A stretch of DNA of 64,000 nucleotides from Oscillospiraceae bacterium (GCA_015069165.1 SVJD01000001.1:57485-121484); one strand, 5' to 3'; counted from the first letter of the stretch, positions 3,495 through 61,075 are shown. The notes: a model not told the origin generated them from the sequence alone. Translations and numbers: made by a program.

Positions 3495-3508
3495 AATTTT
3501 TTGCTCCT

Positions 3509-3724: not shown

Positions 3725-3776
3725 TGTATTACACCTCATAAATAGTTTTAGTAAGTATGCTATTTCACCATTTGCC

Positions 3777-3800
3777 ATTATACCACACTCCTCGTCAAAC
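3777..3800 (-). promoter_or_regulatory. Putative extended -10 promoter (TGgTATAAT) for the XRE-nuclease/helicase-NUDIX-AlbA operon
   Basis: The minus strand reads TTTGACGAGGAGTGTGGTATAATGG. It has a TGnTATAAT extended -10 and a short spacer to a TTGACG -35-like hexamer, about 50 nt upstream of the XRE start. Confidence 0.35.
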
Positions 3801-4004
3801 AGCAACAGTTTCCGGCAGAGAAATACTGCGTTTTCAGCATTTGTCGGTTTTTCACCACAAACTGCAGGTGTGCGCATTGCAGAACGCTTTTTCTTTGTTT
3901 ACTGCTGGGCAATTGTTGACTTGAGTGCAGATTTGGCGGGGTGTTTGAATATCTATCTCCGGATTGGCAAAAATAACGTATATCAAACAAGTGGAGGTAG
4001 TGAA

Positions 4005-24615: not shown

Positions 24616-26088
24616 TTACTCCTTTGTATCAAGGAAAAAAGCTTTTATATGCTCATAACCTTTGTGATATCTGTCAAATTTCTTATTGTAGAACTCAACA
24701 GCTGTCGGATTTGGCTTAAGCACTTTGCTGTAATGAACAAGTTTCTCACAAGCTTCGGAATAATTTGAAAAATATCCGTAACCTGTCGCTGCAAGTATTG
24801 CGGCACCGATACAACATGTATCTTTTTCAGCAGGAATATGAAGCTCGCAACCTGTCGCATCACAAGTAATTTGGCTCCACAAATCACTTTTTGCGGCACC
24901 GCCCACCATTTTAAGCTTTTTGATATCTGAACCGTGTGCGGCAAATTCATTTAATGTTTCACGTGTTTCAAAAGCAATACCTTCCATCAAAGCTCTCGCA
25001 AGATCATACTTGTCATGCATAAGCTCAAGACCCATGCAACAAGCTTTTACTGCGGGAATATGATGCGGGAATCCGGAACCTGCAAAATAAGGATAAAACA
25101 TAATGTTTTCTGCTGAATCCATACGGTCTGCAGCACCGTCATCAAGGATATTGTAATCTTCACCTGTTATATTCTTGTAGAATTTCAATGCAGAACCTGC
25201 ACTGTTTAATGAAGCTATATTTCCGTACAAACCTTCAACCGGATGTACACCGGGAGCTATATGGCTCTTAGTAAACAAGGGTGCTTCTGAAATACCTAAT
25301 ATTACCCAAGTTGTACCTGTCGAAAGAAGCATATCTCCGGGATTTACTGCTCCGCAACCGAGCGAAGCGCAATATTGGTCATGTGCGCCGTTGTAAACTT
25401 TAACGGTTTTGGGAAGCGAAAGCTCTGCCGCCGCTTCTTTTGTTAAAGTGCCTACAAACGCGCCTGTAGGTAAACACTCGGGAAGTCTGTCTCTTGTAAG
25501 ACCTGCTGCTTCAAGAAGAACATCGTTCCAATCTTTTGTTTCTACACTTATAAGCTGTCTCATTGCAGCGTTTGAAGGATCTGTAACATTTCTACCTGTA
25601 AGTTTGTAGTTTACGTATTCAACAGTAGACACAAAATTTGCCGCTTTGTTGAATATCTCAGGCTCATTTTCTGCCATCCAACGCATTTTCGGAGGGTCAA
25701 AACTCGGATCGCATCTCCAACCGGAAATATGGTAGATATCTTCACCGTATTTTTGACGTATTTCATCGTTTTCTTTGGTAGCTCTGCTGTCCATCCATGT
25801 ATATGCATCTGACAACGGTGTAAAGTTTTCATCAACGGGAAGTGTTGTACCTCCTTGAGTGGAAAGTGACATCGCAACGATATTTTTCTTATCAGGAATA
25901 GTTTTAACTGCTTCTTTTACGGAATAAACAACTGCTTTCCACCAATCATTAGCATCTTGCTCTACTTTACCGCCTTTGCCTGCTTTAAGCTCATATTCCA
26001 TATAGCCTTTACCGCAAAGTTTACCATTTTCATCCATTATTATTGTTTTTGTGCCGGTTGTGCCGACATCTGTTCCGACAAAATACAT
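24616..26088 (-). CDS. FGGY-family carbohydrate kinase (xylulokinase/gluconokinase-like)
   Basis: The start MYFVGTDVGTTGTK has a GGAGGG ribosome-binding site. FGGY N- and C-terminal domains are both present. Confidence 0.75.
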   Translation of the reverse strand: MYFVGTDVGTTGTKTIIMDENGKLCGKGYMEYELKAGKGGKVEQDANDWWKAVVYSVKEAVKTIPDKKNIVAMSLSTQGGTTLPVDENFTPLSDAYTWMDSRATKENDEIRQKYGEDIYHISGWRCDPSFDPPKMRWMAENEPEIFNKAANFVSTVEYVNYKLTGRNVTDPSNAAMRQLISVETKDWNDVLLEAAGLTRDRLPECLPTGAFVGTLTKEAAAELSLPKTVKVYNGAHDQYCASLGCGAVNPGDMLLSTGTTWVILGISEAPLFTKSHIAPGVHPVEGLYGNIASLNSAGSALKFYKNITGEDYNILDDGAADRMDSAENIMFYPYFAGSGFPHHIPAVKACCMGLELMHDKYDLARALMEGIAFETRETLNEFAAHGSDIKKLKMVGGAAKSDLWSQITCDATGCELHIPAEKDTCCIGAAILAATGYGYFSNYSEACEKLVHYSKVLKPNPTAVEFYNKKFDRYHKGYEHIKAFFLDTKE

Positions 26089-26117
26089 TTGACCCTCCAA
26101 ATAGCGTAAAATTTTAA

Positions 26118-27506
26118 TTAGATTTTATAAACTTTCATATTCAAAAGTTTACCGAAATGCATCATCTGCTCAGGTGTAACATCATAAACAAGCATACTGT
26201 GGTGTGTTGCACCGAATTCACTCAATTTTCTAAGGAAATCCTTAACAGGAACAGAAGGTTTCATCCAACCTCTGATTGTTCTCTTATATTGGTCGTAATC
26301 GTCCATATCGAGCATTTCAACATCGGATGCAACGAGGCAGAAACCTTCAGCATCACGGAAAATGTTGATATAAACTGCTTTTCCTGCTTTATATCTTGAG
26401 TAACCTGCCATAGGAAGTACAGAATCAACGTAGTTTGAACCTCTGAGACGTACTTCAGGTCTGTAAGCTGCAACACGATAGTTCATTTCACCCATATGGC
26501 TGAGGAAGAGAATGTTGTTCTTCCAGTCAGGACAGAAAATTTCTACGAATGATGCATCACCGAAAGCACGAATAAGAGCACCTGTAAATACAGCATCAAG
26601 AGCATCGCCCTCACCTGCATAACCGATACCTCTTGACATAGCTTTACAAGCTTCGATGAAAGGCATTGAGTCAATACCGTATGCAGGGCAAGCTTTCAAG
26701 AAGTTAACTGAGAACGCATCAAGATGCTCTTTTTCGATCCATTTACGAATTGAAAGACAAGCTCTTGTATTCATACGATAAACTTCATCGGAAATATCAA
26801 TCGGGAAATCGAAAATTTCTTTATCTGCTTCTATTTCTGCGTCAATTTCTTCGTCTGTGATTGACTGAGTAATCTGACGAGCCTCATCGTTGTTAGATAC
26901 GATAAATTCAACATCGAAGTTTTCTTTCATTTCCTCGGGAGTCACAATAAAGTCACCCATTCCGCTGAAGCTGCCGCCGAATACGCCGACTTTTGTGCCT
27001 TTTACGGAATTTGCAGCAACAGATGCTTTTACATAGTTAACTGTTTCTTTAACAACATCAGACTCTTTGTAGTGTCCGCAAGTAATAGCATATGTTTTTT
27101 TACCTCTGATAAGAAGATTGCAGAAATCCATTACGCCGTGGATACCGTGATTGTAGTCAATCTCATCGTTGATTGTTGTAGGAGCAAACTCGTAAGTCAT
27201 TGTTGTGTCCATTACAACGATAGGAAGCTTTGTGTTTATAAGAACATCTGCAGACTCAAGTGAAGGTGAGTATGCCATGTGAAGTGTTACAATACAATCA
27301 GCATTTTCTTTTTCGTAATTTTCAACTGCAGCCTTGAACTCTGACTCTAAACGACAGAAAGGTGTGCGCATTACTTCTAAACCTTCGTTTTCGAGAATTG
27401 TTGCCATTTCATCATAAAATGCTTCGAGTCTCGGACGAAGCTCACCGCAACTGTCATCATAAAGCTTGATGTAAAGCGGTAAAAAACCAATTTTTATCTT
27501 TTTCAT
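26118..27506 (-). CDS. L-arabinose/L-fucose isomerase family protein
   Basis: The N-terminus MKKIKIGFLPLYIKLYDD is characteristic of the AraA-like family. Confidence 0.5.
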   Translation of the reverse strand: MKKIKIGFLPLYIKLYDDSCGELRPRLEAFYDEMATILENEGLEVMRTPFCRLESEFKAAVENYEKENADCIVTLHMAYSPSLESADVLINTKLPIVVMDTTMTYEFAPTTINDEIDYNHGIHGVMDFCNLLIRGKKTYAITCGHYKESDVVKETVNYVKASVAANSVKGTKVGVFGGSFSGMGDFIVTPEEMKENFDVEFIVSNNDEARQITQSITDEEIDAEIEADKEIFDFPIDISDEVYRMNTRACLSIRKWIEKEHLDAFSVNFLKACPAYGIDSMPFIEACKAMSRGIGYAGEGDALDAVFTGALIRAFGDASFVEIFCPDWKNNILFLSHMGEMNYRVAAYRPEVRLRGSNYVDSVLPMAGYSRYKAGKAVYINIFRDAEGFCLVASDVEMLDMDDYDQYKRTIRGWMKPSVPVKDFLRKLSEFGATHHSMLVYDVTPEQMMHFGKLLNMKVYKI

Positions 27507-27525
27507 AAATTAACCTCCGTTGATA

Positions 27526-28548
27526 TTAAAAGCTTATATTAAAAAGTTTTGCGGCATTGTTGCACATAATATCTTCAACATCTTGTTTTGATAATTTAAG
27601 TGCTTCTGCTGCTCTCTTGAAGGCCAAGAGTTCCTCATACATGAAGCATGTAATGTCTTCTCTGTCAGTTTCACGCATGTGTACATCGCCGGAAACATCA
27701 CCGTAAAGACCTCTGGGAACATTGTTATAATAAACGCCGTTTTCGAAAGTACGGAACATTTTCATCTTTAATATCGGCAAATCAGAACCGAACATAAAGC
27801 GCTTTGGTCCTACTGTTTCGAGACATTTAATCATAGCATAGTCGTAGGTATTTGCAGTAAAGTCAAACATCATATTCTTTGTATTTTTCAATACTTCAAA
27901 TGCATTACCCAAATCCTCAGGTGTATACGCTCTGCCAACGTGTGCAACTATAAGCTTTACATTAGGATATTTCTCTTCTATTTCCAAAAGCTGTGCAAGA
28001 TTCAAAGGATCGCGAAGTCTTGCAGGTCTTGAAATATGAAGCATAACGATCCACCCCTTGCGATTAGCAAGCTCCAAATGTTCCGGTGTTAAAAAGTCGA
28101 ATATACGAATTTCACCTGCCGGAATATAGTCGGGTGAATTATTCTGATATGGTTTTAATCCGCAAAAACCGCCCTGCTCTACTTCTTTTTCAAGAAATTC
28201 CGCAGTCATAGAGTGATGTGTGCAATAGAAAGCAGGAAGATTATATTTCTTTGCAGCTTCACTTGTATATTTGTTGTTTTGTGCAAGGTCACACTGAGGC
28301 TCGCCCATCAAAACTGCTTTTACGGTTTTTCCCGGAAACATATCTTTATATGTTTGGAAAAGATCCTCAACAGTATTGTATTCTGCAACCATACTGGTCC
28401 AAGAAACACAAGCTTTTGCATCGCTCTTTTTAATACATTCTTTGGGCCATATATGTATATGACAGTCAATCATTTTCTCAGGTAAAAAATCCTTGAGTTG
28501 TTCCTCATAAATTTTCTTGTCATAAGCTGACATTTCATATCCGAACAT
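27526..28548 (-). CDS. Amidohydrolase-2 family metal-dependent hydrolase (TIM barrel)
   Basis: The metal-binding signature is IDCHIHIW. Confidence 0.6.
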   Translation of the reverse strand: MFGYEMSAYDKKIYEEQLKDFLPEKMIDCHIHIWPKECIKKSDAKACVSWTSMVAEYNTVEDLFQTYKDMFPGKTVKAVLMGEPQCDLAQNNKYTSEAAKKYNLPAFYCTHHSMTAEFLEKEVEQGGFCGLKPYQNNSPDYIPAGEIRIFDFLTPEHLELANRKGWIVMLHISRPARLRDPLNLAQLLEIEEKYPNVKLIVAHVGRAYTPEDLGNAFEVLKNTKNMMFDFTANTYDYAMIKCLETVGPKRFMFGSDLPILKMKMFRTFENGVYYNNVPRGLYGDVSGDVHMRETDREDITCFMYEELLAFKRAAEALKLSKQDVEDIMCNNAAKLFNISF

Positions 28549-28560
28549 TTTAATTCTCCT

Positions 28561-29055
28561 TTATTCGCCGATAATCATAACTTGAACAGTACGCTGTCTT
28601 GCTCTTGTCTGGTCAAAATCAATAAAATGAATGTGTCCGAATTCACCAAGATCAAGCTCTCCGTCAATAAGAACGATTGTTTCGCTTCTGCCGATAATAG
28701 ATGAACGCAAGTGAGCATCAGTATTGTGGCAACCTCTCGCATCTTCATCATGTTCTTCTGCAAATTTCAATGCCTTCGGTCCGGGATGCAAATAGATACC
28801 TTCATGTTTGCAAACAGGAATAATATCATCCATAATGTTTACCAAATCTTGTTGAAGTGTTTCCAAACCTGTTATTGATTCATCAAAAGCACACTCTTGT
28901 GTAATTACACAGCAAGTTGTGTGGTGTGAATATACAACAACGATACCGTTCTTAATGCCTGAACGCTCTACAACTTCTCTTGTGCCTGCTGTAACATCAT
29001 GGAAAGAACACATCTTATCATTTGACTGAACTTTGAACGCTTCTCTGTATACCAT
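28561..29055 (-). CDS. YjbQ/UPF0047 family protein
   Basis: The motif HHTTCCVITQE is conserved, and a paralogue lies at 29813. Confidence 0.65.
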   Translation of the reverse strand: MVYREAFKVQSNDKMCSFHDVTAGTREVVERSGIKNGIVVVYSHHTTCCVITQECAFDESITGLETLQQDLVNIMDDIIPVCKHEGIYLHPGPKALKFAEEHDEDARGCHNTDAHLRSSIIGRSETIVLIDGELDLGEFGHIHFIDFDQTRARQRTVQVMIIGE

Positions 29056-29070
29056 ATCAAAATTACTCCT

Positions 29071-29781
29071 TTATTTTTTCATTTTTTCAAGATCGTCTGC
29101 AGCCTGTCTTACAGCAGCAATCATTTCGTCTATCATAGCAATAGGATCTTCGGCATTCATAATACCCGATGCTGCACCTGCAGCTTCTGAACCTGCCATA
29201 ATAAAATCATATACTTGTTTGCCGTTTGTGATACCTGCAGCTTGTTCAACAAGGATATTAGGGTCAATCTCTCTGATTGCCTGCATAACCTCTTTAACAT
29301 AACTCATATCACTTACTCCGCCGCCTGAACCGCCGATAAGCTCTGTGGGCTCGGGGTTGATAATATCGGGGTGAAGCTGAGCAATTGCTTTTGCCTCTGC
29401 AACAGTATCAGCACAAGCGAAAACAAGGAAATCTATCTCGTTTGCTCTGTCGATTGTTGCTTTAATTTGTGGTAAGGACATAGGTTTTTCACAGTGGTTT
29501 ACAACAACACCAACCGCACCTGCTGCTTTTAATGCCTCAGGAAGTACGTCTGCCATACCTCTGCCCGGACGAAGTGTATCCATATACGGAGCGAGTACTA
29601 TAAGATTCTTTGTGTTTTGAACAACATTTCTGATTTCAACTGCGGGGCAAATAAAAAGTACATCGATGTCATACTTTTCTGCTGCAGCATCAGCAGCTTT
29701 TGCATATTCCAACACTTTATCGCCGTATATGTAGTTTTTTGTACCGATTTCGAAATACGGTGTTCTTATTTTTCTTTTCAT
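29071..29781 (-). CDS. Triosephosphate isomerase-family protein
   Basis: The 236-aa protein has a TIM-like fold and sits between two YjbQ genes inside the sugar-catabolism cluster. Confidence 0.45.
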   Translation of the reverse strand: MKRKIRTPYFEIGTKNYIYGDKVLEYAKAADAAAEKYDIDVLFICPAVEIRNVVQNTKNLIVLAPYMDTLRPGRGMADVLPEALKAAGAVGVVVNHCEKPMSLPQIKATIDRANEIDFLVFACADTVAEAKAIAQLHPDIINPEPTELIGGSGGGVSDMSYVKEVMQAIREIDPNILVEQAAGITNGKQVYDFIMAGSEAAGAASGIMNAEDPIAMIDEMIAAVRQAADDLEKMKK

Positions 29782-29812
29782 AATAATTAATCCACCTTAA
29801 ATATTTAGTAAA

Positions 29813-30433
29813 TTATCTCTTAAGCTGAAGATCATAGTGAGGATCATATGCTTTTTCTTCTGCTGTGTATTTACGGAGTGTGTTTACAACTTCGCCGTTG
29901 TTGAACTTTCTGTCTTCTACATCCTCAGTTGTTCCCATGATAGTAACGTTGAGCTGTCTTCTGCGAGCACGAACGTGATCCCAGTCTACGAAATAGATGT
30001 GAGCGAATTCGCCGCCATCAAGCTCGCCGTCTTTGATTGTCATAACTTCGCTTCTGCCAAAGAATACACTTCTGAGGTGTCCGTCTGTATTCATACTTGT
30101 GAAGTCACCGGGCTCATCAACGTAACGGCCAAACTGTGTATGAATCGGTCCGGGGTGACGATATTGATGCTCTTCTGCAAAGTCAGGAGCAATTTTTCTC
30201 ATGATGTCGAGAAGGTCATGTTGCAAATATTCGATATCGAAAGAATCGATGTCATGTGAACATTCCTGAATCATTACGCAGCATGTTGTGTGGTGTGATG
30301 CAAGATTACATGTACCGTTTTTAATACCTGAAGCTTTTACTATTTCAATTACCTCTTTGGATACATCGTGAAATGTAGGGATCCAACCTCTTGATTGCAA
30401 TTCGATTTCTTTTTGATAAACTTTAAATTCCAT
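29813..30433 (-). CDS. YjbQ/UPF0047 family protein (long form)
   Basis: The motif HHTTCCVMIQE is present. Confidence 0.65.
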   Translation of the reverse strand: MEFKVYQKEIELQSRGWIPTFHDVSKEVIEIVKASGIKNGTCNLASHHTTCCVMIQECSHDIDSFDIEYLQHDLLDIMRKIAPDFAEEHQYRHPGPIHTQFGRYVDEPGDFTSMNTDGHLRSVFFGRSEVMTIKDGELDGGEFAHIYFVDWDHVRARRRQLNVTIMGTTEDVEDRKFNNGEVVNTLRKYTAEEKAYDPHYDLQLKR

Positions 30434-32400: not shown

Positions 32401-32483
32401 GCGGATGTGGTGAAATTGGCAGACACGATGGATTTAGGTTCCATTGCGAGAGCGTGCGGGTTCAAGTCCTGTCATCCGCACCA
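32401..32483 (+). tRNA. tRNA-Leu, anticodon UAG (type II, long variable arm)
   Basis: The acceptor stem GCGGATG/CATCCGC is perfect. The anticodon arm is ATGGA-TTTAGGT-TCCAT, there is a long variable arm, the T-loop is GGTTCAAGTCC, and CCA is encoded. Confidence 0.85.
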
Positions 32484-33542: not shown

Positions 33543-33571
33543 TTATATATAAATTGAAGGAGGTCTTTAAA

Positions 33572-35347
33572 ATGGATAATAAGTACATTGACTTATACCA
33601 AGACACTTGGGCGGCAGCTGACAATTTAAAACGTGAGCTTCCCTTAGATGTAAAAGGTTTACAAAAAGACGGAAAAGTTGGTATTTTCTACTTTATGTGG
33701 CATTGCGGCAGAGGTCCGCTTATGGACCACACAGTAGCTTACGCTATGGGCGGAGCTGATGAATTTGAAAAAATGTTAGCAAGCGGTCCTTTAGGTTTTG
33801 CACATTATTGGGCAGAGCCATATTTTGGCTACTACCGTTCCGATGACGAATGGGTAATCCGTAAGCATATTTATCAACTTATGAATGCTGGAATTGATTT
33901 TATTTTCTTTGATGTAACAAACGGCTTAATTTATGCCCCTGTTCTCGAAGTAATTTTGAAAGTTTGGAACGAAGTTCGCGCTGAAGGTTACAAAACACCT
34001 GATGTTATTTTCAACTGCGGCGATAGCTTTGACAATTCAAGCAGATCTTTCGGCGCACTTTTAGAAAAATTTTACAGCGACAAACAGTATGACAATTTGT
34101 GGTTTAATTGGGAAAACAAACCGCTCGTTCTCGCACCGAGAAGTTTGGCAGAATCTCTCCCTGCAGATGTTCGCGACAGATTTACATTCCGTAAATGCTG
34201 GGCTATGACAAACGACGAGTGGTATACTTCTACCGATGGTAAAGGCGCTTGGGCGTGGGCTGATATGTATCCTCAAATGCCCGGCAAATCAGAAACAGGA
34301 GAAGTTGAGCAAGTTATCGTTATGTGCGGTTTCTGGGTAAACGGAAGTTACGGTACTAATGCCGGAAGAAGTTTTCATGACGGCAAGCAACCTCCCAACA
34401 AAAAAGAAAGAGATTACGGTTTTTCACTTGTTGATGATACTACACCGCACGGATATGCTTTCCAAGAGCAATTTGAGCGTGCAAAAGAAATCAATCCTCC
34501 TATAGTGATGATTACAGGTTGGAATGAATGGTGGGCAGGTCGTTGGGATAACTATCTCCCCGGCGGTGTAAATCCTGCCAAAGGTCAGTTAATTGCAAAC
34601 ACATACATTGTTGACCCCGAAGATCCTATGAAGCGTAATTATTACGTAGATTGCTTAAACGGAGAATATTCTCGTGATATTGAGCCTGTAAAAGGTCTAT
34701 TTAACGATAACTATTATTATCAAATGGTTTCAAATATCAGAGAATACAAAGGTTCTCGCCCTATCCCCTGTGCTGACGGACAGAAAACAATTGATATAAA
34801 CGGCTGTCCTTGCCAATGGAATGATGTTGGTCCTGAATATCTTGACTATAAAGGTGATACTGTTAAACGTGATGCCGTTTCACATGTTGGCGAAATTCAT
34901 TATGTGAATGATTCCGGCAGAAACGACTTTGTTACAATGAAAGTGTCTTCTGATGATGAATTTATTTATTTCTATGCTGAATGTGCAGATAGCATTACTG
35001 CTCCCGAAGGTACAAATTGGATGAACCTCTTTATTAACGCTGACCGTTCATATAATACCGGTTGGTACGGTTACAATTTTGTATTGAACAGATTCCAAAA
35101 CGGTAACGAAATTTCCGTAGAAGCCTTCAAAGATTCCGAATGGGCTATGGAAAAAGTCGGTACTGCGGAGTATTGTGTAAAAGGAAATATAATTCAAATC
35201 AAAGTTTCAAAAGCACTTTTGGGCATTAAAGATTCTTTTGAATTCAAATGGGCCGACAACTCTGTTTCAGACGGCGATATTATGAAATTCATTGACATGG
35301 GCGATGTTGCTCCTAACGACAGATTTAATTACATTTTCAAAAAATAG
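33572..35347 (+). CDS. Putative glycoside-hydrolase-like protein (uncharacterised family)
   Basis: The N-terminal stretch (FYFMWH...GWNEWW) and the length are what a TIM-barrel with a beta-sandwich C-terminus would give, but this is a judgement from primary sequence only. The ORF was trimmed to the ATG that has a GGAGG ribosome-binding site. Confidence 0.3.
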   Translation: MDNKYIDLYQDTWAAADNLKRELPLDVKGLQKDGKVGIFYFMWHCGRGPLMDHTVAYAMGGADEFEKMLASGPLGFAHYWAEPYFGYYRSDDEWVIRKHIYQLMNAGIDFIFFDVTNGLIYAPVLEVILKVWNEVRAEGYKTPDVIFNCGDSFDNSSRSFGALLEKFYSDKQYDNLWFNWENKPLVLAPRSLAESLPADVRDRFTFRKCWAMTNDEWYTSTDGKGAWAWADMYPQMPGKSETGEVEQVIVMCGFWVNGSYGTNAGRSFHDGKQPPNKKERDYGFSLVDDTTPHGYAFQEQFERAKEINPPIVMITGWNEWWAGRWDNYLPGGVNPAKGQLIANTYIVDPEDPMKRNYYVDCLNGEYSRDIEPVKGLFNDNYYYQMVSNIREYKGSRPIPCADGQKTIDINGCPCQWNDVGPEYLDYKGDTVKRDAVSHVGEIHYVNDSGRNDFVTMKVSSDDEFIYFYAECADSITAPEGTNWMNLFINADRSYNTGWYGYNFVLNRFQNGNEISVEAFKDSEWAMEKVGTAEYCVKGNIIQIKVSKALLGIKDSFEFKWADNSVSDGDIMKFIDMGDVAPNDRFNYIFKK

Positions 35348-35354
35348 TAAATTT

Positions 35355-36791
35355 TTATGAATTGACAGAATATTCTTTTTTAAAACCATGGGCGCCGAAG
35401 ATTTGCCATTTGCCAATGCCGAGGCGCCCGATAATTGCTTTTCTTTCCTCAGAACAAAGTTTTGGATTTGTATCAACGGAAGTCATCAAAATAGGTGCAT
35501 ATTGATTGTACTCGGCTTGTTCAGGTGTAAGTCCGTGAGTATTTATATAAATATCCCCTGTTAAAGCAATATGATGAGTATAATCAATCAACACAATTTC
35601 TCCCGGCAAATGACCGCCCTTACCTTCATATACTTCAAAATGAAGCTCCTCGAAATCAAAAAAACCGATTTGAGTAAGAGGTTGTGACAAATTATCAACA
35701 ATGTTCCACAAAGCTTTAATTTTATCAGGATTCACAGCCTTATAGGAAGTTAACAATTTACAAATATTGATATATGGCTTGTGAAGAGGGTTCTTTTCTC
35801 TGAATCCGTCGTTTCCAACAAATTCACTTTTTAAGCAAAAAGCCGTTTTTGTACTTGTAATTATTTCATCAAACAAAGGAAGTAAGCCGCAGTGATCAAC
35901 ATCCGCGTGAGTAACTATAATAGTTTTCTTCATTTTATCAAAATCGGGAATAATTTTTTTAAAAATTTTCTGCATCTCAATACTGTAACATGCGTATCCG
36001 CTATCAACAAACAAAAACTTATTATTACTTTTTATAATAATTGTGTTACTGCCGCAAGGAGGTTCTATTAATATTATTTCGGTATTGTCTGTTATTCTGT
36101 GATTACTGATTCGGGGCATAAAATTTCTTTCTTTTGATGCACCGAGTAAATCCGCAAACTTACTTATACTATCAAAAGTTCTGTACGGAGATAATCCTTG
36201 TTCGTCAAGAGTTTGCATAGCAAGATTGACGTGGACCAAAAGTTCACGTCTAATCTCGTCAGAAAGCCCCATTGTTTTGGAGAGACCCATAACATAAGTA
36301 TTATAAAAAATACTATTATCATATACCTTTTCAGAACTGTTATAATTTATGACTCGAACCTTGCAAATTTTTTCAGCCTCTTTTAAAAATTCAGAAATTT
36401 TATCAATATCTTCAACGTACAAACCCATTTTAAAATATTGATATGCAGTTCCGTTTTCCTGAGAACTTATATACGAAATGTTAAAATTAAAATCAGATAT
36501 TAATTCAAGCACATTCACAACACTGCCCGGAATATCTTCAAGACAAAATTCAATCAAAACAACACTTGATTTATTCGTATTACTTTGCAAATAACCGATT
36601 TTTTCAAGTTCTGTATCAGCTTTCTTTAACTGTTCTTCCGTACCTTCTGCATCTATAAAGAGTGTATGCGAATCAACAGCTTTGTTATAACTTACACGAG
36701 TTATATTTATCCCTAAAGCAGAAAAACACTTACTTGCTTTTAAAAAAGCACCGATATGATTAGGCATTGATGTCACGTAAGTCTTTTTCAT
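35355..36791 (-). CDS. Tandem ACT-domain protein fused to MBL-fold metallo-hydrolase
   Basis: Two N-terminal ACT-like units precede an MBL motif THADVDHCGL. It is the last gene of the T-box operon. Confidence 0.55.
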   Translation of the reverse strand: MKKTYVTSMPNHIGAFLKASKCFSALGINITRVSYNKAVDSHTLFIDAEGTEEQLKKADTELEKIGYLQSNTNKSSVVLIEFCLEDIPGSVVNVLELISDFNFNISYISSQENGTAYQYFKMGLYVEDIDKISEFLKEAEKICKVRVINYNSSEKVYDNSIFYNTYVMGLSKTMGLSDEIRRELLVHVNLAMQTLDEQGLSPYRTFDSISKFADLLGASKERNFMPRISNHRITDNTEIILIEPPCGSNTIIIKSNNKFLFVDSGYACYSIEMQKIFKKIIPDFDKMKKTIIVTHADVDHCGLLPLFDEIITSTKTAFCLKSEFVGNDGFREKNPLHKPYINICKLLTSYKAVNPDKIKALWNIVDNLSQPLTQIGFFDFEELHFEVYEGKGGHLPGEIVLIDYTHHIALTGDIYINTHGLTPEQAEYNQYAPILMTSVDTNPKLCSEERKAIIGRLGIGKWQIFGAHGFKKEYSVNS

Positions 36792-37230
36792 AATTTACCA
36801 CCTGATTTTTGCATTTTACAATAGCTTCAGTGACATCTGTTAAGACAAGTTCACCGTTTTGATTATATGCATCAATTCTAATTTCTACCAATCCGTTTTT
36901 GGAGTTTCTTTTTTCGAGTTTTGTAATAATTGCCTTTCCTATCAAAACATCATCAGCAAATACAGGTTTTAACCACTCTATTTTAGTGGACTTCCCTGCC
37001 AATAATTCATTGCCGAAAAAATCAACTTCGAGATATTTTGCCCATACAGACATAAAAGACATTACCCCCGGAGCAATAAGCTTACCAAAAGGTGTAGTTT
37101 TTGCATATTCCTCATCGGTATGAAGAGGAATATTGTCATAATCTCGAGCAAAATCTATCATTTTTTCTTTTTTTATAACGGCGGCAGATATTTCCACCGC
37201 CATACCAATTTCCAAATCGTCAAAATACAT
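36760..37230 (-). CDS. MaoC-like (R)-hydratase/dehydratase, hot-dog fold
   Basis: The 156-aa protein is MaoC-like. Confidence 0.65.
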   Translation of the reverse strand: MYFDDLEIGMAVEISAAVIKKEKMIDFARDYDNIPLHTDEEYAKTTPFGKLIAPGVMSFMSVWAKYLEVDFFGNELLAGKSTKIEWLKPVFADDVLIGKAIITKLEKRNSKNGLVEIRIDAYNQNGELVLTDVTEAIVKCKNQVVNYEKDLRDINA

Positions 37231-37231
37231 A

Positions 37232-39685
37232 TTACAATCCTAACATTTCAACCGACATATCACGCATTTTGTATTTTAATATTTTACCTGCGGCATTCAT
37301 CGGAAATTCATCTACGAAAACAAAGTATTTAGGTACTTTATGTCTTGCAATGGAGGCATTTCCGTATTCTTTCATTTCGGCTTCATCAGAAGTTTCACCT
37401 TTATGAAGAATAATCCAAGCGCAACATTCTTCGCCGTATTTTTCATCCGGAACACCAACTACTTGAACATCGCGAACTTTAGGATTTGTTAAATAAAACT
37501 CTTCAATTTCACGAGGATAAAGGTTTTCACCACCGCGAATAATCATATCTTTCAAACGACCCGTAACTTTATAGTAACCATCGGGTGTTCTCATACAAAT
37601 ATCTCCGGAATGGAGCCATCCGTCAGCATCAATTGCTTGAGCCGTAGCCTCAGGCATTTTATAATAACCCTTCATAATGTTAAATCCGCGTGCAACAAAT
37701 TCTCCGCTTTCTCCATCAGGAAGTTCATTTCCTGTTTCGGGGTCGATAATCTTACATTCAACACCGGGGAAAGCACTGCCAACAGTTTCTACACGGTGGT
37801 CAAGATCCTCGTTTACCTCACCCATTGTACAACCGGGAGATGCTTCTGTCTGACCGTAAACCGAAATAATTTCACGCATATTCATTTCAACGGAAGCACG
37901 GCGCATCAAATCTGCCGGGCAGTTTGCACCGGCCATGATACCTGTTCGCATATATGAAAAATCAGTCTTTGCAAAATCAGGATGATTGAACATAGCGATA
38001 AACATCGTGGGAACACCATTAAAGCAAGTGATACGTTCATCGTTTACACACGCAAGAGAAGACTTTGGTGAGAAATATGGAATAGGGCAAAGTGTACCGC
38101 CGTGTGTCATCATAGATGTCATAGAAAGTACCATTCCGAAGCAATGGAACATAGGCACCTGAATCATCATTCGATCAGCAGTAGACAAATCCATTCTGTC
38201 ACCAATAGTTTTTCCGTTGTTTACGATATTGCGGTGAGTAAGCATAACTCCTTTGGGGAAACCTGTTGTACCGGAAGTATATTGCATATTACATACATCG
38301 TCGGGTTTAACGAGAGAAGCACGTCTTCTGACCTCTTCACGAGGAACAAGCGAAGAACGCGAAAGCATTTGCTCCCAAGTAAGACAACCTTCCATATCAA
38401 AACCAACTGTTACGACATTACGAAGGAACGGCAAATTCTTGGAATACAGAGGTTTTCCCGGTTCAAGTGTCTTGAGTTCGGGGCAAAGTTCTTCGATAAT
38501 CTCTTTATAATTTATATCTTTGCAATACTCAATCATAACGAGCGTATGAGTATCGGATTGTTTGAGCAAATATTCGATTTCGTGAATCTTATACGCAGTG
38601 TTAACTGTAACCAAAACAGCACCGATTTTAGTCGTTGCCCAGAATGTAATAAACCATTGAGGAACGTTTGTTGCCCAAATAGCAACGTGATCTCCGGCTT
38701 TTACACCCAAAGAGATAAGTGCTGCTGCACATTCGTCTACATCACGACGGAATTGCTCGTAAGTTCTTGTATAGTCCAATGTGGGATACTTAAAAGCAAA
38801 TTGATCGGGATATGTTTCTGCCATTGTGTCAAGTACTTCTGAAAATGTAGCATCAATAACATCATACTTTTTCCATACGAAAGTACCTGTTTTTGAACGA
38901 TTATAATAAGCATGATCAAATGTTTTCTTTTCACGGTTAAGTGCAGAAATATAATTCGTGAAATGTGTCAAAACAATATCAGCATCACTGATTTCTTCAT
39001 TCCAAGCAGCACAGATGAAGCCCTCATAATTTAAAGAAGAGAGCGCATTCAGTACCTTACTTACATCTAAATCTCCCTCACCTATCAAAACTGTTTTGCC
39101 GTCTTTCATATCGCCGAGACGAACATACTTGATATATGCTCCTAAATTTTTAATTGTCGTTTCTGCTGATTCGCCCGCATCAAAATAAGTTCTTCTTACA
39201 TTCCAAGAAACACCGATATTAGCAAAAGCGAAATGATTAATAATACCTATTACATTTTCTGTATGTGCAAGGCTTCCTACAGTTTCGAACAAAATCATAA
39301 CATCTGAAGCTTCCGCACGCTTAATGGCAACAGATAATTTTGCATCTAACACATCAAAAGGTACATTATTTTCTGCTCTGACAATTACATTTTCAATACT
39401 GGCGGAAGCTGCCATATCAACGTATTTTTCAATAAGTTCAGCAGTAATTTCTTCATTTTCAACAGAACCGGGCACACGCAAAGCAGAAACAGACAAAGTT
39501 CTGTTAACCAGTTTTCTTTTTGCATCAGCAACACGATCACGCCTTAAGATACTGTCGTGATGTGCGTTTCTTTCTTTAATTGCATCATATATTTCAAAAC
39601 CCTCAAAACCGTAGTCGTAGGCATATCTGCATATATCAAGAAAAGATGCGCGACTAACATTTTTAGTTGAAAAAACAATTTTCAT
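37232..39685 (-). CDS. Fusion: xylose-isomerase-like TIM-barrel domain plus AMP-dependent acyl-CoA synthetase/ligase
   Basis: The N-terminal ~270 aa form a sugar-phosphate isomerase/epimerase-like barrel. The C-terminal part carries the AMP-binding motif YTSGTTGFPKGV and has the acyl-CoA synthetase fold. The start was trimmed to MKIVFSTKN and is translationally coupled to the upstream gene. Confidence 0.6.
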   Translation of the reverse strand: MKIVFSTKNVSRASFLDICRYAYDYGFEGFEIYDAIKERNAHHDSILRRDRVADAKRKLVNRTLSVSALRVPGSVENEEITAELIEKYVDMAASASIENVIVRAENNVPFDVLDAKLSVAIKRAEASDVMILFETVGSLAHTENVIGIINHFAFANIGVSWNVRRTYFDAGESAETTIKNLGAYIKYVRLGDMKDGKTVLIGEGDLDVSKVLNALSSLNYEGFICAAWNEEISDADIVLTHFTNYISALNREKKTFDHAYYNRSKTGTFVWKKYDVIDATFSEVLDTMAETYPDQFAFKYPTLDYTRTYEQFRRDVDECAAALISLGVKAGDHVAIWATNVPQWFITFWATTKIGAVLVTVNTAYKIHEIEYLLKQSDTHTLVMIEYCKDINYKEIIEELCPELKTLEPGKPLYSKNLPFLRNVVTVGFDMEGCLTWEQMLSRSSLVPREEVRRRASLVKPDDVCNMQYTSGTTGFPKGVMLTHRNIVNNGKTIGDRMDLSTADRMMIQVPMFHCFGMVLSMTSMMTHGGTLCPIPYFSPKSSLACVNDERITCFNGVPTMFIAMFNHPDFAKTDFSYMRTGIMAGANCPADLMRRASVEMNMREIISVYGQTEASPGCTMGEVNEDLDHRVETVGSAFPGVECKIIDPETGNELPDGESGEFVARGFNIMKGYYKMPEATAQAIDADGWLHSGDICMRTPDGYYKVTGRLKDMIIRGGENLYPREIEEFYLTNPKVRDVQVVGVPDEKYGEECCAWIILHKGETSDEAEMKEYGNASIARHKVPKYFVFVDEFPMNAAGKILKYKMRDMSVEMLGL

Positions 39686-39686
39686 T

Positions 39687-41075
39687 TTATGCCTCCTCGA
39701 AAACGATTTTGTTAAGTGCATTCAAATATGCTCTTATACTTGCAGCAATGATATCCGTAGAAGTACCATTACCAGAATAAAGCTTACCGTTATTGCGGAG
39801 TCTTACAAGAGCAGAACCTAAAGCGTCCTTTCCTTCTGTTACAGACTGTACCTGGAAATCATCAAGTTCATAATGATGACCGATGCACTGTTCGATTGCA
39901 CGAAAAGCAGAGTCAACAGGACCTTCACCGTTACTTACACCGCAAATAATTTCACCGTTACATTTTAAAATTACTTGCGACATAGAACTTGATACATTGC
40001 TGCTCGTAGTTGTATATGACTCCAAATGATACGTAGAAGGAGCCTGCATAGCATAACTTGCAATAAGTGCTTCAAATTCTCTTGAACCTATTGCGCCCTT
40101 TTTGTCACACAAATGCTTGAGAGCCTTAAATACATTTCCAACGTCTGAATCAGAAAGTTCATAACCCAATACTTCCGCAGCTTGAGTAACCTGCGCCAAA
40201 GTAGAATCTGAATCAAGTAATATTTTTTTCTTTTCACTTATTTCATTATCGTTTTCATATGCTTCATGGTTAATACGCAAAAGCATATCATCAATACTTG
40301 AATGAATTTTCGTATTGTTTAACTTAATTTCAGCATTAATTTGTCCGCCGCAAGCATTTATTGCATCAGAAATCTCTCCTGTTAAAAGCACATCTTTTCC
40401 AACCATTGCGCATTTAATTCCGTCTGCACCTTTTGAAATTGCAGAAAAAGCAGAAGCAACTGCCATATTTATACGGTCAGAAAGTTTAACGTAAACGGGA
40501 ATGCTTACGGTTGCCTTTACCTTTGCAACTAAAGCAGCAATATCGTCAGGTGTTGAAACCCCTGCTTCGTCACATATTGTAATTGTTTTAGCACCGTTGT
40601 TTTCAGCTTCTTTAACAGCTGAAATAAGAAAATCTTCATCTGCTCTTGTAGCATCAAGTGCAGAAAATTCAACATCATCACAAAGTGTTTTTGCTGCTTT
40701 TGTAAGTTCTGCAATTTTCTCAAGCATTTTCGACTGCTTTATATGATATGTGTATTCCATTTGAATTGTCGAAACGGGCAATTCAACTTGAAGTCCGGGC
40801 TTTTTTGCATCTTTTACACATCCCCACGCAGATGTAACATCTTCTGTATTATATCCTACCGGTATTGTTAAAGCCGCATTTTGTATATTTTGAGCAATTG
40901 TTTTATAAATAATAGTATCTTCTCGAAGTGATTTTACCGCCGGAAGTTCGATGGCATCAACACCAATTGTATCTGCACAGTTAGCGATAGCGGATTTTTC
41001 ACGGAATAGCAAATTAAGTGCACGCTCCTCTGCGAGCTTTTTAAGCGTAATGTCCGTAACAATGATTCTTTTCAT
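39687..41075 (-). CDS. LeuA/HMGL-family homologue with degenerate catalytic motifs and intact LeuA C-terminal regulatory domain
   Basis: DTTLRDGEQ is replaced by DITLKKLAEE. The HxH(N)D metal site is replaced by KLSDRINMAVASAF. The C-terminus GEGPVDSAFRAIEQ...GKDALGSALV...GTSTDIIAASIRAYLNALNKI aligns with the allosteric domain of LeuA. It is the first gene after T-box leader 1. Confidence 0.6.
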   Translation of the reverse strand: MKRIIVTDITLKKLAEERALNLLFREKSAIANCADTIGVDAIELPAVKSLREDTIIYKTIAQNIQNAALTIPVGYNTEDVTSAWGCVKDAKKPGLQVELPVSTIQMEYTYHIKQSKMLEKIAELTKAAKTLCDDVEFSALDATRADEDFLISAVKEAENNGAKTITICDEAGVSTPDDIAALVAKVKATVSIPVYVKLSDRINMAVASAFSAISKGADGIKCAMVGKDVLLTGEISDAINACGGQINAEIKLNNTKIHSSIDDMLLRINHEAYENDNEISEKKKILLDSDSTLAQVTQAAEVLGYELSDSDVGNVFKALKHLCDKKGAIGSREFEALIASYAMQAPSTYHLESYTTTSSNVSSSMSQVILKCNGEIICGVSNGEGPVDSAFRAIEQCIGHHYELDDFQVQSVTEGKDALGSALVRLRNNGKLYSGNGTSTDIIAASIRAYLNALNKIVFEEA

Positions 41076-41398
41076 TTTTGAAAACCCCTTTCAAATTGTG
41101 TAAATATAATAAATTTTTGTAACAAAAAAACGTTTCCATCTCGTTGTTACTACAAAGAGACGAAAACGTTAAAAAAAACTAAATTTCCGCGGTACCACTC
41201 TTCTTCATCCAAAACAGGATGCACCTTAGATGCTATCACATCTTAACTCTGTTACGGGAGTTCCCGTCTGCCACTACTTAAACTTTCATGTCAGCCGCTC
41301 CGCGGTGAGTTCAGCAAAATTCTCACAGTGTCTTGCACCATCCGACACCTCTCTGTTAGTAAAGCATATTGCATACTACTCCGCATCTTCGCGTTTAC
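41076..41398 (-). promoter_or_regulatory. T-box riboswitch leader (with promoter TTGACA at 41429-41434 and intrinsic terminator about 41121-41170)
   Basis: On the minus strand the AGAGAGG GA-motif is followed by the T-box sequence AGAGTGGTACCGCGG (plus-strand CCGCGGTACCACT at 41187-41199). After that comes a 14-bp terminator helix AACGTTTTCGTCTC/GAGATGGAAACGTT plus U7, and then an AAAGGGG ribosome-binding site. Confidence 0.7.
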
Positions 41399-41441
41399 TT
41401 GACACAGAATATCATTTTTTATTTGTATTGTCAATAAAAAA

Positions 41442-41873
41442 TTACAATTTACATACATCAGCTTCCGTTACAATTTTAAAACCTGCATTCGAAAGAACGT
41501 TTTCTGCGGCTTTGTTATCTTCTACACGGACAACAACGTAAGCGTGTTTTTCAGTACGGGTCATAAAAGCGTACAAATATTCCATATTGATTTTGTTTTC
41601 ATCAAGAACTTTCAATGCCTCAGAAAGTTTGCCGGGTTCATCACTGATTTTTACACCGACAACATCGGTTATCTTTATAAGATATCCTGCTTCATTAAGA
41701 ATTCTTTCGGCCATTGTCTCATTGTCAACAATCAAACGCAAAATACCAAACTCCTGAGTTTCTGCAATTGAAAGTGCTCTGAGATTAATATTGTGTTTTG
41801 AAAGAGTTTCTGTAATTGAAACTATTGATCCTTGTTTGTTTTCAACAAATACAGTTAATTGCTTAATTGCCAT
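41442..41873 (-). CDS. ACT-domain protein (pairs with PaaK-like ligase)
   Basis: The 143-aa protein has two ACT-like halves. Confidence 0.55.
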   Translation of the reverse strand: MAIKQLTVFVENKQGSIVSITETLSKHNINLRALSIAETQEFGILRLIVDNETMAERILNEAGYLIKITDVVGVKISDEPGKLSEALKVLDENKINMEYLYAFMTRTEKHAYVVVRVEDNKAAENVLSNAGFKIVTEADVCKL

Positions 41874-41894
41874 AATAAATTCCCCTTTCTGATA

Positions 41895-43202
41895 TTACAC
41901 AAGTTTTCTCTTATCAATAACGCGGACAGCTTTACCTTCACTTCTTGCAATGCTTTTCGGTGCTACAAGATGAACAGCAGGATTGATGCCGAGCATGGCT
42001 TTCATTGCATTTGCAAGAGCTTTTTCCATAGAAAGAATTTCGCTGAGTTTATCGGTGAACTTTTCAGGTGTCATTTCAACGTTAACTTCAAATGTATCGG
42101 TATTTTTAACACGGTCTACAACAATCTGATAGTTTGGCTGATAACCTTCACTTAAAAGAACTGTTTCTATTTGACTCGGGAATACATTAACTCCGCGAAT
42201 AATAAGCATGTCATCTGTTCTTCCCATAGGTTTTGCCATTTTCACAAGAGTTCTGCCACAAGAACACTTTTTACGTGAAAGAACACAAATATCACGTGTG
42301 CGGTAACGCAAAAGCGGAAACGCTTCCTTATCGAGTGAAGTGAACACAAGCTCACCTTTACTTCCTTCGGGAAGTACTTCACCTGTATCAGGATCGATAA
42401 TCTCGGCATAGAAGTGGTCTTCATTTATATGCATGCCTGTTTGCTCGCTACACTCAAATGCAACTCCCGGACCGGTTGTTTCCGTCAGACCGTATATATC
42501 GTAAGCTTTAATTCCGAGTGTTTCTTCAATACTGCGGCGCATTTCCTCTGTCCAAGGCTCTGCACCGAAAATTCCAGCTTTTAGCGGAATATCTTCAGGT
42601 TTATATCCTTGCTCTTTCAATGTTTCACCGATATAAGCGGCATAAGATGGTGTACAGCAAATAATTGATGCACTAAGATCCATCATGAACTGGATTTGTC
42701 TTTCTGTATTACCTGATGACATAGGAAGTGTCAAACAACCAACCTTATGTGAGCCACCGTTAAGACCGGGACCTCCTGTGAATAAGCCGTAACCGTATGC
42801 AACCTGACAAACATCTTTTTTAGTTCCGCCTGCTGCAGTAATTGCACGTGCGCAACAATCTTCCCAAAGGTCAATATCGTGTTGTGTGTAAAAAGCAACA
42901 ACACGTCTGCCTGTTGTACCTGATGTTGACTGAATACGAACACAATCCTCAAGGGGTTTTGCTAAAAGTCCATATGGATATGCATCTCTCAAATCGGCTT
43001 TTGAGATAAACGGAAGTTTGTGCAAGTCATCAATACCTTTGATATCTTCAGGTTTTACACCTTTCTCGTCCATAAGATTACGGTAATACGGTACATTTTC
43101 ATATACGTGTTTTACCTGCTTAACGAGTTTTTCTGATTGAAGTTTTTTCATATCTTCAATCGGCATTGTTTCAATTTCTTTTTGATAATAGTTTTGTGCC
43201 AT
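41895..43202 (-). CDS. Phenylacetate-CoA ligase family (PaaK-like aryl-CoA ligase)
   Basis: The protein is PaaK-like throughout (QSTSGTTGRRVV, YGLTE). The start was trimmed to MAQNYYQKEIETM, which has an AGGGTGG ribosome-binding site. Confidence 0.7.
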   Translation of the reverse strand: MAQNYYQKEIETMPIEDMKKLQSEKLVKQVKHVYENVPYYRNLMDEKGVKPEDIKGIDDLHKLPFISKADLRDAYPYGLLAKPLEDCVRIQSTSGTTGRRVVAFYTQHDIDLWEDCCARAITAAGGTKKDVCQVAYGYGLFTGGPGLNGGSHKVGCLTLPMSSGNTERQIQFMMDLSASIICCTPSYAAYIGETLKEQGYKPEDIPLKAGIFGAEPWTEEMRRSIEETLGIKAYDIYGLTETTGPGVAFECSEQTGMHINEDHFYAEIIDPDTGEVLPEGSKGELVFTSLDKEAFPLLRYRTRDICVLSRKKCSCGRTLVKMAKPMGRTDDMLIIRGVNVFPSQIETVLLSEGYQPNYQIVVDRVKNTDTFEVNVEMTPEKFTDKLSEILSMEKALANAMKAMLGINPAVHLVAPKSIARSEGKAVRVIDKRKLV

Positions 43203-43565
43203 TTTGACCACCCTTTCTTTTTGCTTACGGAGTGAGAAAAGCAATAAAAAACGCCCTCCGCATTCCGATAAAGAATACAGAGGACGAGAAAATCAATAAT
43301 CCCGTGGTACCACCTCAGTTCGCTGTCATCTCACAACAACAGCCTTGTCAGGTACTATCATACCTTAGTTCTATAACGGGAACACCCGTTGCATCCTACT
43401 TAAGAAAAAAACTTGTTCAGCGCACTGCTAACAGAATGAATTCGAGAAGGACGTAAACTTTGCCTCGCACCAACCGGCAACTCTCTCCAGAATCGTTCCG
43501 ACCTACTGGTTTCTGATCATCGCATTTAGTTTCAATTACACACAAAAGTTAAACACAACTTTCAT
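43203..43565 (-). promoter_or_regulatory. T-box riboswitch leader 2 (promoter TTGACT...TATATAAT at about 43571-43610 on the minus strand)
   Basis: On the minus strand a short Stem I (AGAGAG, UUGCC, loop, GGCAA, AGUUUACGU) is followed by the T-box GAGGTGGTACCACGGG (plus-strand CCCGTGGTACCACCTC at 43301-43316). Then comes a terminator CGTCCTCTG...CGGAGGGCG plus U6, about 35 nt before the start codon. Confidence 0.65.
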
Positions 43566-61058: not shown

Positions 61059-61075
61059 GAAAGAGGTGCATTTAC

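Follow-up and report, generated by a model that had tools for sequence, protein, structure and literature searches.

A leucine-specific T-box leader ahead of a LeuA-like pseudoenzyme and a TIM-barrel/acyl-CoA ligase fusion in an Oscillospiraceae bacterium

Why should a T-box leader, an RNA known for its control of synthetases, canonical biosynthetic enzymes and transporters, stand in front of an acyl-coenzyme A (acyl-CoA) ligase and a degenerate homologue of LeuA? The question is raised by a four-gene operon at positions 35355-41398 of a 64,000-nucleotide stretch of DNA from an Oscillospiraceae bacterium (GCA_015069165.1 SVJD01000001.1:57485-121484), which is referred to here, in its full length, as the window. 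The operon lies on the minus strand, as do all window features given below unless marked (+), and encodes, in order, a LeuA-like protein, a fusion of a TIM barrel with an acyl-CoA ligase (the TIM-ligase), a MaoC-type hydratase, and a hydrolase in which two ACT units precede a metallo-beta-lactamase domain (ACT-ACT-MBL). The leader itself is unremarkable within a well-known RNA family; the genes under its control are not. We find that the leader reads a leucine codon and that its conserved payload is the LeuA-like protein together with the TIM-ligase, and we propose, at a probability that we put at about one half, that the system is a leucine-starvation switch inducing the activation of isovalerate (or a closely related acid) for leucine synthesis, with the dead LeuA as its sensor. 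The regulatory claims are solid, and the metabolic mechanism is a well-motivated inference.

Using cmscan, we located the leader at 41153-41398, where the T-box model RF00230 matches over its full length (model positions 1-219 of 219) with a score of 125.4 bits against a gathering score of 93 (E = 2e-27); it is a genuine, complete class I transcriptional T-box. Like other members of this class, such as the B. subtilis tyrS and glyQS leaders, it comprises Stem I (with K-turn, AG bulge and distal loop), a specifier loop of the form GAA-codon-purine, Stem II with its S-turn, Stem IIA/B, Stem III, and an antiterminator with a UGGN bulge that competes with a terminator followed by a run of U residues. 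Upstream of it lies a sigma-70-like, promoter-like site (41406-41434) composed of TTGACA and, 17 nucleotides (nt) further on, a TG-extended TATTCT, which matches 10 of 12 positions in a consensus scan in addition to the TG, and whose end is 8 nt from where the T-box match begins.

The covariance model, which accepts the leader above its gathering score, calls the specifier codon as CUC (41307-41309), set in the Stem I loop as GAA-CUC-A between GAA (41312-41310) and the conserved purine A at 41306. Judged by this codon the T-box is leucine-specific, as are the leaders of leuS and of ilv-leu operons. A preliminary description of the locus, made from the sequence by eye, had instead sought the specifier in GAAAGUUUAAGUAG, with UUA or UUU as candidates; this segment corresponds to model positions 113-125, which form the Stem II loop with the S-turn, so that the codon had been looked for in the wrong helix and both candidates are ruled out. 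At the other end of the leader the T-box sequence AGAGUGGUACCGCGG (41187-41201) carries UGGU (41197-41194), predicted to pair with the tRNA 3' end ACCA, and this discriminator-reading element would fit a tRNA with A73. The antiterminator folds with a canonical 7-nt UGGUACC bulge. It is followed by an intrinsic terminator (41124-41170), a 14-bp stem (41170-41157 paired with 41142-41129, including two G-U pairs) and then U7, which folds at -20.9 kcal/mol (z -5.3), a stability reached in none of 200 shuffles. Since the segment UUCGUCUC is shared between the 3' arm of the antiterminator and the 5' arm of the terminator, the two structures are mutually exclusive. The preliminary description's account of a complete T-box leader with a 14-bp terminator and U7 is borne out in full.

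The leader is retained at five close orthologous loci and three distant ones, and this allowed the specifier call to be examined across lineages. The five close leaders read CUC (four) or CUG (one), and the three distant lineages, in which the TIM domain of the ligase is only ~50% identical, read CUC, CUU and CUC, so that, with the window included, the leaders preceding the LeuA-like/TIM-ligase pair carry CUC seven times and CUG and CUU once each, all of them leucine codons. Because the changes among orthologues stay inside the leucine codon box, as expected of a functional specifier, they support the leucine call. A tRNA-Leu gene lies 3 kb from the operon (32401-32483 (+)); its anticodon is UAG, whereas perfect pairing with CUC would call for the GAG isoacceptor.

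Which of the four genes does this leader chiefly serve? Within the operon the genes are translationally coupled, as the preliminary description had it, because they are joined by the junctions TAAaATG and TAAtATG and by a 32-nt overlap. Its four domain assignments also hold, on the strength of Pfam matches throughout and, for the two ACT units, of an AlphaFold model. To compare gene order we used the 80 closest loci of the MBL gene, which encode proteins 76-86% identical to that of the window and which are all from Clostridia of ruminant or herbivore guts. The genes for the LeuA-like protein and the TIM-ligase are always found together behind a leucine T-box (L023, L031, L034, L036 and L075, and the distant L087-L089). 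The four-gene arrangement of the window, by contrast, was found only in its own species among ~78 related loci, and an MBL gene inside the leucine operon occurs only there and in L075, which has no MaoC gene. The conserved payload of the leucine T-boxes is thus the LeuA-like/TIM-ligase pair only.

The first member of this pair (462 amino acids (aa); 39687-41075) joins a degenerate DRE-TIM barrel to a LeuA regulatory domain (Pfam HMGL-like and LeuA_dimer). It shares with LeuA this two-domain layout and stands behind a leucine T-box, as genuine leuA genes do in some bacteria. Unlike LeuA, it lacks the catalytic apparatus. Its best NCBIfam LeuA match, NF002086, is split into two stretches and scores 252.5 bits against a cut-off of 532, which is less than half of every NCBIfam LeuA cut-off (all at least 532). 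Compared with the solved LeuA of L. monocytogenes (3EWB), DTTLRDGEQ is replaced by DITLKKLAE, with loss of the Arg-Asp of RDGEQ, and HCHDDLG by KLSDRIN. RDGEQ and HxH are likewise absent from six LeuA-like orthologues of 45-75% identity in an alignment with E. coli LeuA (which agrees with the 3EWB alignment); also lost across the orthologues are GIGERAGN and the ~25-residue HSSGIHQDG subdomain (subdomain I), which is deleted. In DRE-TIM metallolyases an Asp and two His bind the catalytic metal and an Arg binds the 2-oxo acid. Because these metal and substrate ligands are gone, the LeuA-like protein should be incapable of Claisen condensation, and from its sequence we regard it as a pseudoenzyme, not to be annotated as a synthase. 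The missing catalytic residues rule out an active LeuA or citramalate synthase making a pathway substrate.

What the protein keeps is the other half. The leucine-binding part of LeuA is its C-terminal regulatory domain, and the corresponding LeuA_dimer domain (PF08502) is matched at 111.5 bits over positions 4-130 of 131 and is the best-conserved part of the orthologues. The conserved features include the GxGPxD loop of LeuA, here G-[DE]-G-P-[IV]-D (GEGPVD in the window protein), and a block running from HHYELDDFQ through GKLYSGNG.STDI to ASIRAYINALNKIV. The protein retains this regulatory domain of LeuA and is predicted to bind leucine. The degenerate barrel has likewise stayed well conserved, at 45-75% identity; KNLREDTIIYKTIA and STVQMEYTYH are examples of its conserved blocks.

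The second member of the pair (817 aa; 37232-39685) combines a xylose-isomerase-like TIM barrel (approximately residues 1-250; Pfam AP_endonuc_2) with an ANL acyl-CoA ligase (Pfam AMP-binding and AMP-binding_C); gene callers choose the 817-aa start, and a protein begun at the in-frame ATG further upstream (39721) would have 829 aa. Its ligase portion is sound by its Pfam scores (PF00501, 320.8 bits; PF13193, 59.4 bits) and by its ANL core motifs, YTSGTTGFPKG (consensus TSGTTGxPKG) and the C-terminal lysine in AAGKILKYK (GKILK). The TIM domain matches PF01261 at 38.2 bits against a gathering score of 31.1, and its AlphaFold model (predicted local distance difference test, pLDDT, 89) is similar to ketose 3-epimerases, UlaE and AsbF (12-20% identity), with TM ~0.7 for the ketose 3-epimerases and UlaE. 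This domain is seen only fused to the ligase (167 hits, mostly Clostridia); when it was used by itself as the query for homologues, nothing but fragments of this fusion family came back, and none of them was a stand-alone or annotated protein. Its invariant residues are E31, D44, E134, E172, D192, D236, H241 and R263, and the linker to the ligase, YYNRSKTGTFxWKKYD, is nearly invariant. Within the Glu-Asp-His-Glu metal tetrad of sugar isomerases (strands 5-8), E134 is invariant, and the Asp and His sites appear, in the model read by eye, to be Asn162 and Arg189.

A function for the pair is suggested by two further modules of the same design. The first (41442-43529) lies 300 nt upstream, directly ahead of the leucine operon promoter. 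A second complete T-box leader (43277-43529; RF00230, 101.7 bits; terminator -22.8 kcal/mol), 2 kb upstream of the operon, has the specifier UUC, a phenylalanine codon, and precedes a PaaK-like phenylacetate-CoA ligase (41895-43244; Pfam AMP-binding and AMP-binding_C_2), which matches NCBIfam TIGR02155 over its full length at 533.8 bits; because this is below the equivalog cut-off of 646.3, we call it only PaaK-like. Co-transcribed with it is a 143-aa protein made of an ACT pair (41442-41873; Pfam ACT_8, 94.8 bits). UUC is found in all readable PaaK-linked orthologous leaders, and wherever a relative has the module, the ACT protein comes after PaaK. The arrangement follows the logic of aryl-acid salvage modules, in which PaaK and an ACT protein, with or without indolepyruvate:ferredoxin oxidoreductase, provide an ATP-dependent ligase for an acid with one carbon fewer than the amino acid's 2-oxo acid; it shares with these, and with the reductive carboxylation of branched volatile fatty acids by rumen bacteria, a small amino-acid-binding partner and a rumen or hindgut setting. 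Unlike aryl-acid modules, each module here has its own T-box of matching specificity and the oxidoreductase is unlinked, and the leucine ligase is PRK12583/FadD3-like with an N-terminal TIM barrel and has a partner derived from LeuA in place of one made of ACT units only.

The other module was encountered through the MBL gene, whose commonest context, at ~29 loci, is a T-box followed by a 766-aa ligase with HTH_3, Cupin_2 and AMP-binding domains and then by ACT-ACT-MBL (for example L018 6342-8967; also L015, L023, L027, L031, L034 and L036, among others). The fusion of a DNA-binding domain to an acyl-CoA ligase (HTH_3 and Cupin_2 with an MbcS-like part) is unusual in itself. The T-box before it has the specifier AUC, an isoleucine codon, called by cmscan on L018 and read in 27 leaders, and at L029, L052 and L068 an isoleucine T-box directly precedes the MBL gene. 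Among characterised enzymes the ligase resembles S. aureus MbcS, its best NCBIfam match, and Methanosarcina Macs, both of them short/medium branched-chain acyl-CoA synthetases of the ANL type that use 2-methylbutyrate and similar acids; the match to the MbcS family (2-methylbutyrate/isobutyrate ligase) reaches 454 bits against a cut-off of 850. Unlike MbcS, which feeds lipid synthesis, it carries the extra HTH and cupin domains and stays below the equivalog cut-off, and the window's own ligase belongs to another subfamily than MbcS and Macs. MbcS is a proven 2-methylbutyrate/isobutyrate-CoA ligase (PMC10026030), and use of 2-methylbutyrate is also documented for Macs (PMC10455477).

The clade therefore holds three parallel modules: phenylalanine (UUC), with a PaaK-like ligase and then an ACT protein; isoleucine (AUC), with an HTH-cupin-MbcS-like ligase and then ACT-ACT-MBL; and leucine, with the dead LeuA and then the TIM-ligase. 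Each combines a T-box that answers to a single amino acid with a ligase that activates an acid and, next to the ligase, a protein bearing an amino-acid-binding domain. The synthesis of amino acids from acids in the rumen is reportedly also the subject of classical labelling work on ruminococci. Carboxylation of isovalerate is a reported source of leucine in rumen microbes, for which phenylacetate and phenylpyruvate are the reported precursors of phenylalanine (PMC7356843). Within T-box regulons, what the downstream gene does agrees with the amino acid named by the specifier (PMC2494555).

Taken together, these observations suggest the following scheme. Uncharged tRNA-Leu reading CUC would stabilise the antiterminator, and the operon would be read through. 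The TIM-ligase would then spend ATP to turn a salvaged acid built on the leucine skeleton, isovalerate in the simplest case, into its CoA ester. Reductive carboxylation of the ester by a 2-oxoacid:ferredoxin oxidoreductase, whose gene would lie elsewhere, would lead to 2-oxoisocaproate, and transamination would yield leucine. The dead LeuA may sense leucine and exert fast feedback on the ligase, in parallel with the ACT protein placed beside PaaK. The scheme is supported because its carriers are ruminant and herbivore gut Clostridia, because the ligase keeps the ANL core and because the specifier is a leucine codon throughout, in all 10 of the LeuA-like/TIM-ligase operons considered. The broad idea of the preliminary description, a CoA route from a short-chain acid induced by an uncharged tRNA, gains from the phenylalanine and isoleucine ligase modules behind T-boxes; its linear order of activation, hydration and hydrolysis is not supported, because the four genes are not conserved together.

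The two remaining proteins have to be fitted in. The MaoC-type (R)-specific enoyl-CoA hydratase/dehydratase (156 aa; 36760-37230; Pfam MaoC_dehydratas PF01575, 45 bits against 27) has the Asp32/His37 dyad of the hydratase-2 motif in YDNIPLH, kept in 14 of 15 orthologues, and is probably active to judge by this retained dyad. The last protein (478 aa; 35355-36791; Pfam ACT and Lactamase_B, the latter 29.6 bits against 22.7) is modelled by AlphaFold (pLDDT 86.6) as two ACT-like units of beta-alpha-beta-beta-alpha(-beta) topology, a helical linker and an MBL domain. Its ligands H295-x-D297-x-D299-H300, H394, D413 and H468 are conserved in 28 homologues of 23-64% identity; the motif is HxDxDH and not HxHxDH, so that every ligand position is filled, with one His changed to Asp, and the protein is probably an active binuclear metallo-enzyme. 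In fold, and in a binuclear site with every ligand position occupied, it is comparable to the MBL-fold thioesterases (glyoxalase II, PqsE), and it differs from them in the HxDxDH motif, in an identity of only 14-19% to any solved MBL protein and in an ACT-ACT-MBL architecture that has no characterised member. Foldseek returned only generic relatives at that level of identity (BcII, the thioesterase PqsE, ODP and flavodiiron proteins); at 14%, PqsE ranks with the top matches, on a par with beta-lactamases, ODP and flavodiiron proteins.

The family is widespread. We counted ~150 clusters at 50% identity (E < 1e-30), and at least 591 stretches of GTDB species-representative genomes hold a relative. 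In Methanosarcina, Methanoculleus, Methanomassiliicoccales, a Desulfoplanes-related contig and other Clostridia the MBL gene occurs by itself, and it is also alone, with no ligase nearby, at 80 metagenome loci of an intermediate clade. There, no T-box was found in the eight loci scanned with Rfam, and a T-box motif search of all 80 gave scattered matches, none placed before the MBL gene; a search for an informative conserved partner outside the gut-Clostridia clade found none. In many archaeal homologues the N-terminal half matches PF00585 (Thr_dehydrat_C, the threonine deaminase regulatory domain), which likens the tandem ACT units to the ACT-like regulatory domains of IlvA. The stand-alone proteins of Methanosarcina siciliae (L084) and Methanoculleus (L085/L086) are ~25% identical to that of the window. 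In gut Clostridia, MaoC-MBL pairs occur at 15 loci, none of them with a T-box at gathering score. A glycine riboswitch aptamer was seen directly downstream of the ACT-MBL gene at one locus (L025 10765-10865). MaoC and MBL together look like an accessory module that this genome has moved from the isoleucine context into the leucine operon. Within the proposed scheme, this captured pair, its MBL gated by an amino acid, would in most relatives belong to the isoleucine counterpart, and CoA thioesters are probably what it edits or hydrolyses; thioester-level editing or CoA release is our best guess for its role, and a weakly supported one.

Several points weigh against isovalerate activation for leucine synthesis with a LeuA-derived sensor. 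The oxidoreductase and aminotransferase it calls on are unlinked: no VOR/IOR, leuBCD or aminotransferase gene was found in the window or in 10 kb past each of its ends. The substrate of the ligase is not readable from sequence, because its best NCBIfam match is the generic subfamily PRK12583 below cut-off (673 bits against 832) and its closest solved relatives are diverse, including feruloyl-, malonyl- and fatty-acyl-CoA ligases. The fused TIM barrel is without a role in a plain isovalerate route, which suggests a more elaborate substrate or extra chemistry, and extra chemistry is hinted at again by an Amidohydro_2 (PF04909) gene, equally without a role in that route, that often adjoins the LeuA-like/TIM-ligase pair (L031 5439-6248, L034, L087 7493-8293, L088 1504-2295) and is absent beside the pair of the window. 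The Amidohydro_2 family includes reversible decarboxylases, hydratases and lactonases. Finally, the co-induction of a thioester hydrolase with a ligase goes unexplained by the model, and we found no precedent, for any homologue, of a regulatory role for a catalytically dead LeuA.

More tentatively, the proposal may extend to a so far undescribed family of acid-salvage modules gated by T-boxes in gut and rumen Clostridia, one per amino acid (leucine, isoleucine, phenylalanine), in which each ligase would be doubly controlled by tRNA charging and by a partner that binds the end product, the leucine partner being a LeuA paralogue turned pure sensor. In this extended form, ACT-ACT-MBL, with its IlvA-like domains and its range from Clostridia to Methanosarcina, would be an amino-acid-gated hydrolase at an unrecognised step in the homeostasis of branched-chain amino acids or of acyl-CoA. 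We consider the extended form possible but doubtful.

Rather unlikely, to our mind, is that the ligase makes isovaleryl-CoA as a primer for iso-branched fatty acids under leucine scarcity, in the manner of S. aureus MbcS, and has nothing to do with leucine synthesis. MbcS-type ligases do channel exogenous branched acids into lipid synthesis (PMC10026030, PMC11167679), the ligase of the isoleucine module is MbcS-like, a shortage of leucine would also restrict the supply of primers, and a complete 2-oxoacid dehydrogenase complex (E2, E3 and fused E1) is encoded 20 kb away. The acid of the phenylalanine module, phenylacetate, is however not a lipid primer. A single logic for the three modules favours amino-acid supply. 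T-boxes, moreover, report tRNA charging, with a specifier that matches the amino-acid function of the regulated gene (PMC2494555), and sensor domains of the leucine, ACT and IlvA types suit end-product feedback in an amino-acid pathway.

We hold it equally improbable that all four proteins form one linear CoA-dependent pathway, in which the ligase would activate an acid, MaoC would hydrate or dehydrate it and the MBL protein would release the product as a thioesterase, for example as a CoA-level bypass of LeuCD (2-isopropylmalate to 3-isopropylmalate via CoA esters) or as a conversion of a C6 dicarboxylate (hydroxymethylglutarate, methylglutaconate) into a leucine precursor. Such a pathway would account for four coupled genes behind a single leucine T-box in this genome and for a MaoC dyad and MBL metal ligands that are all retained, both enzymes being probably active; MBL-fold thioesterases exist, with PqsE among the structural matches, a dicarboxylate ligase (malonyl-CoA synthetase) is among the closest solved relatives of the TIM-ligase, and the frequent Amidohydro_2 neighbour of the core pair belongs to a family with decarboxylases and hydratases. 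Gene order speaks against it: the full set is confined to one species, L075 (of the ~78 loci) has ACT-MBL without MaoC, the MBL of relatives stands behind an isoleucine T-box with a different ligase, MaoC-MBL pairs lack a T-box, and distant MBL homologues are alone with no ligase nearby. Nor could the LeuA-like protein, its active site gone, supply isopropylmalate.

Least likely of all is that, instead of sensing, the LeuA-like protein and the TIM barrel fused to the ligase jointly form a new composite active site or a substrate-channelling scaffold, with chemistry beyond acid activation, for although the degenerate barrel is still conserved at 45-75% identity and the TIM domain, known only from this fusion, has invariant acidic and basic residues and a near-invariant linker, all known DRE-TIM catalytic residues are missing, Asn162 and Arg189 appear, by eye, to take the places of the canonical Asp and His in the metal site of sugar isomerases, and we found no precedent.

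Among the other genes of the window, a 597-aa open reading frame (33554-35347 (+)) is convergent with the operon, its end only 7 nt from the stop codon of the ACT-MBL gene; it has no Pfam or NCBIfam match, and the gap between these two genes showed no terminator. Genes for E2 and E3 of the 2-oxoacid dehydrogenase complex (59322-62446 (+)) lie ~20 kb from the operon; after them comes a gene for a fused E1 alpha-beta (823 aa), which continues past the end of the window (L173 11402-13873); the complex could bear on branched-chain acyl-CoA metabolism. A sugar-type cluster (24616-30433) with YjbQ, triose-phosphate isomerase, a second YjbQ, Amidohydro_2, an AraA-like isomerase and an FGGY kinase appears unrelated to the leucine operon. 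At the start of the window (63-3877, continuing in L172) there is a defence-island-like cluster with a Schlafen-type helicase (PF09848), NUDIX, SLFN_AlbA_2 and an HTH protein, with a D12 methyltransferase and a DUF87 ATPase beside it just beyond the window.

How does the operon stand in relation to what is known? A survey of T-box regulons from 2008 never mentions CoA enzymes (PMC2494555), and our literature search found, in the library covered, no work joining a T-box leader with a CoA ligase, none describing this gene set, and no report of a LeuA pseudoenzyme or of the ACT-ACT-MBL architecture. Through this operon the T-box regulon comes to include functions other than synthetases, canonical biosynthesis and transport. 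The fibre degraders of rumen and hindgut are reported to form leucine, isoleucine and phenylalanine out of volatile and aryl acids; to our knowledge, the genes for the acid-activation steps, and their regulation, are poorly defined. Here the specifier codon offers an unusually direct functional label, one that ties three ligase families to three amino acids and yields testable gene candidates for the use of branched-chain volatile fatty acids, a trait relevant to ruminant nutrition. The LeuA-like protein provides a clean example of an enzyme turned likely sensor, and the operon draws attention to the widespread and uncharacterised ACT-ACT-MBL family, present in at least 591 species-level genomes and in methanogens.

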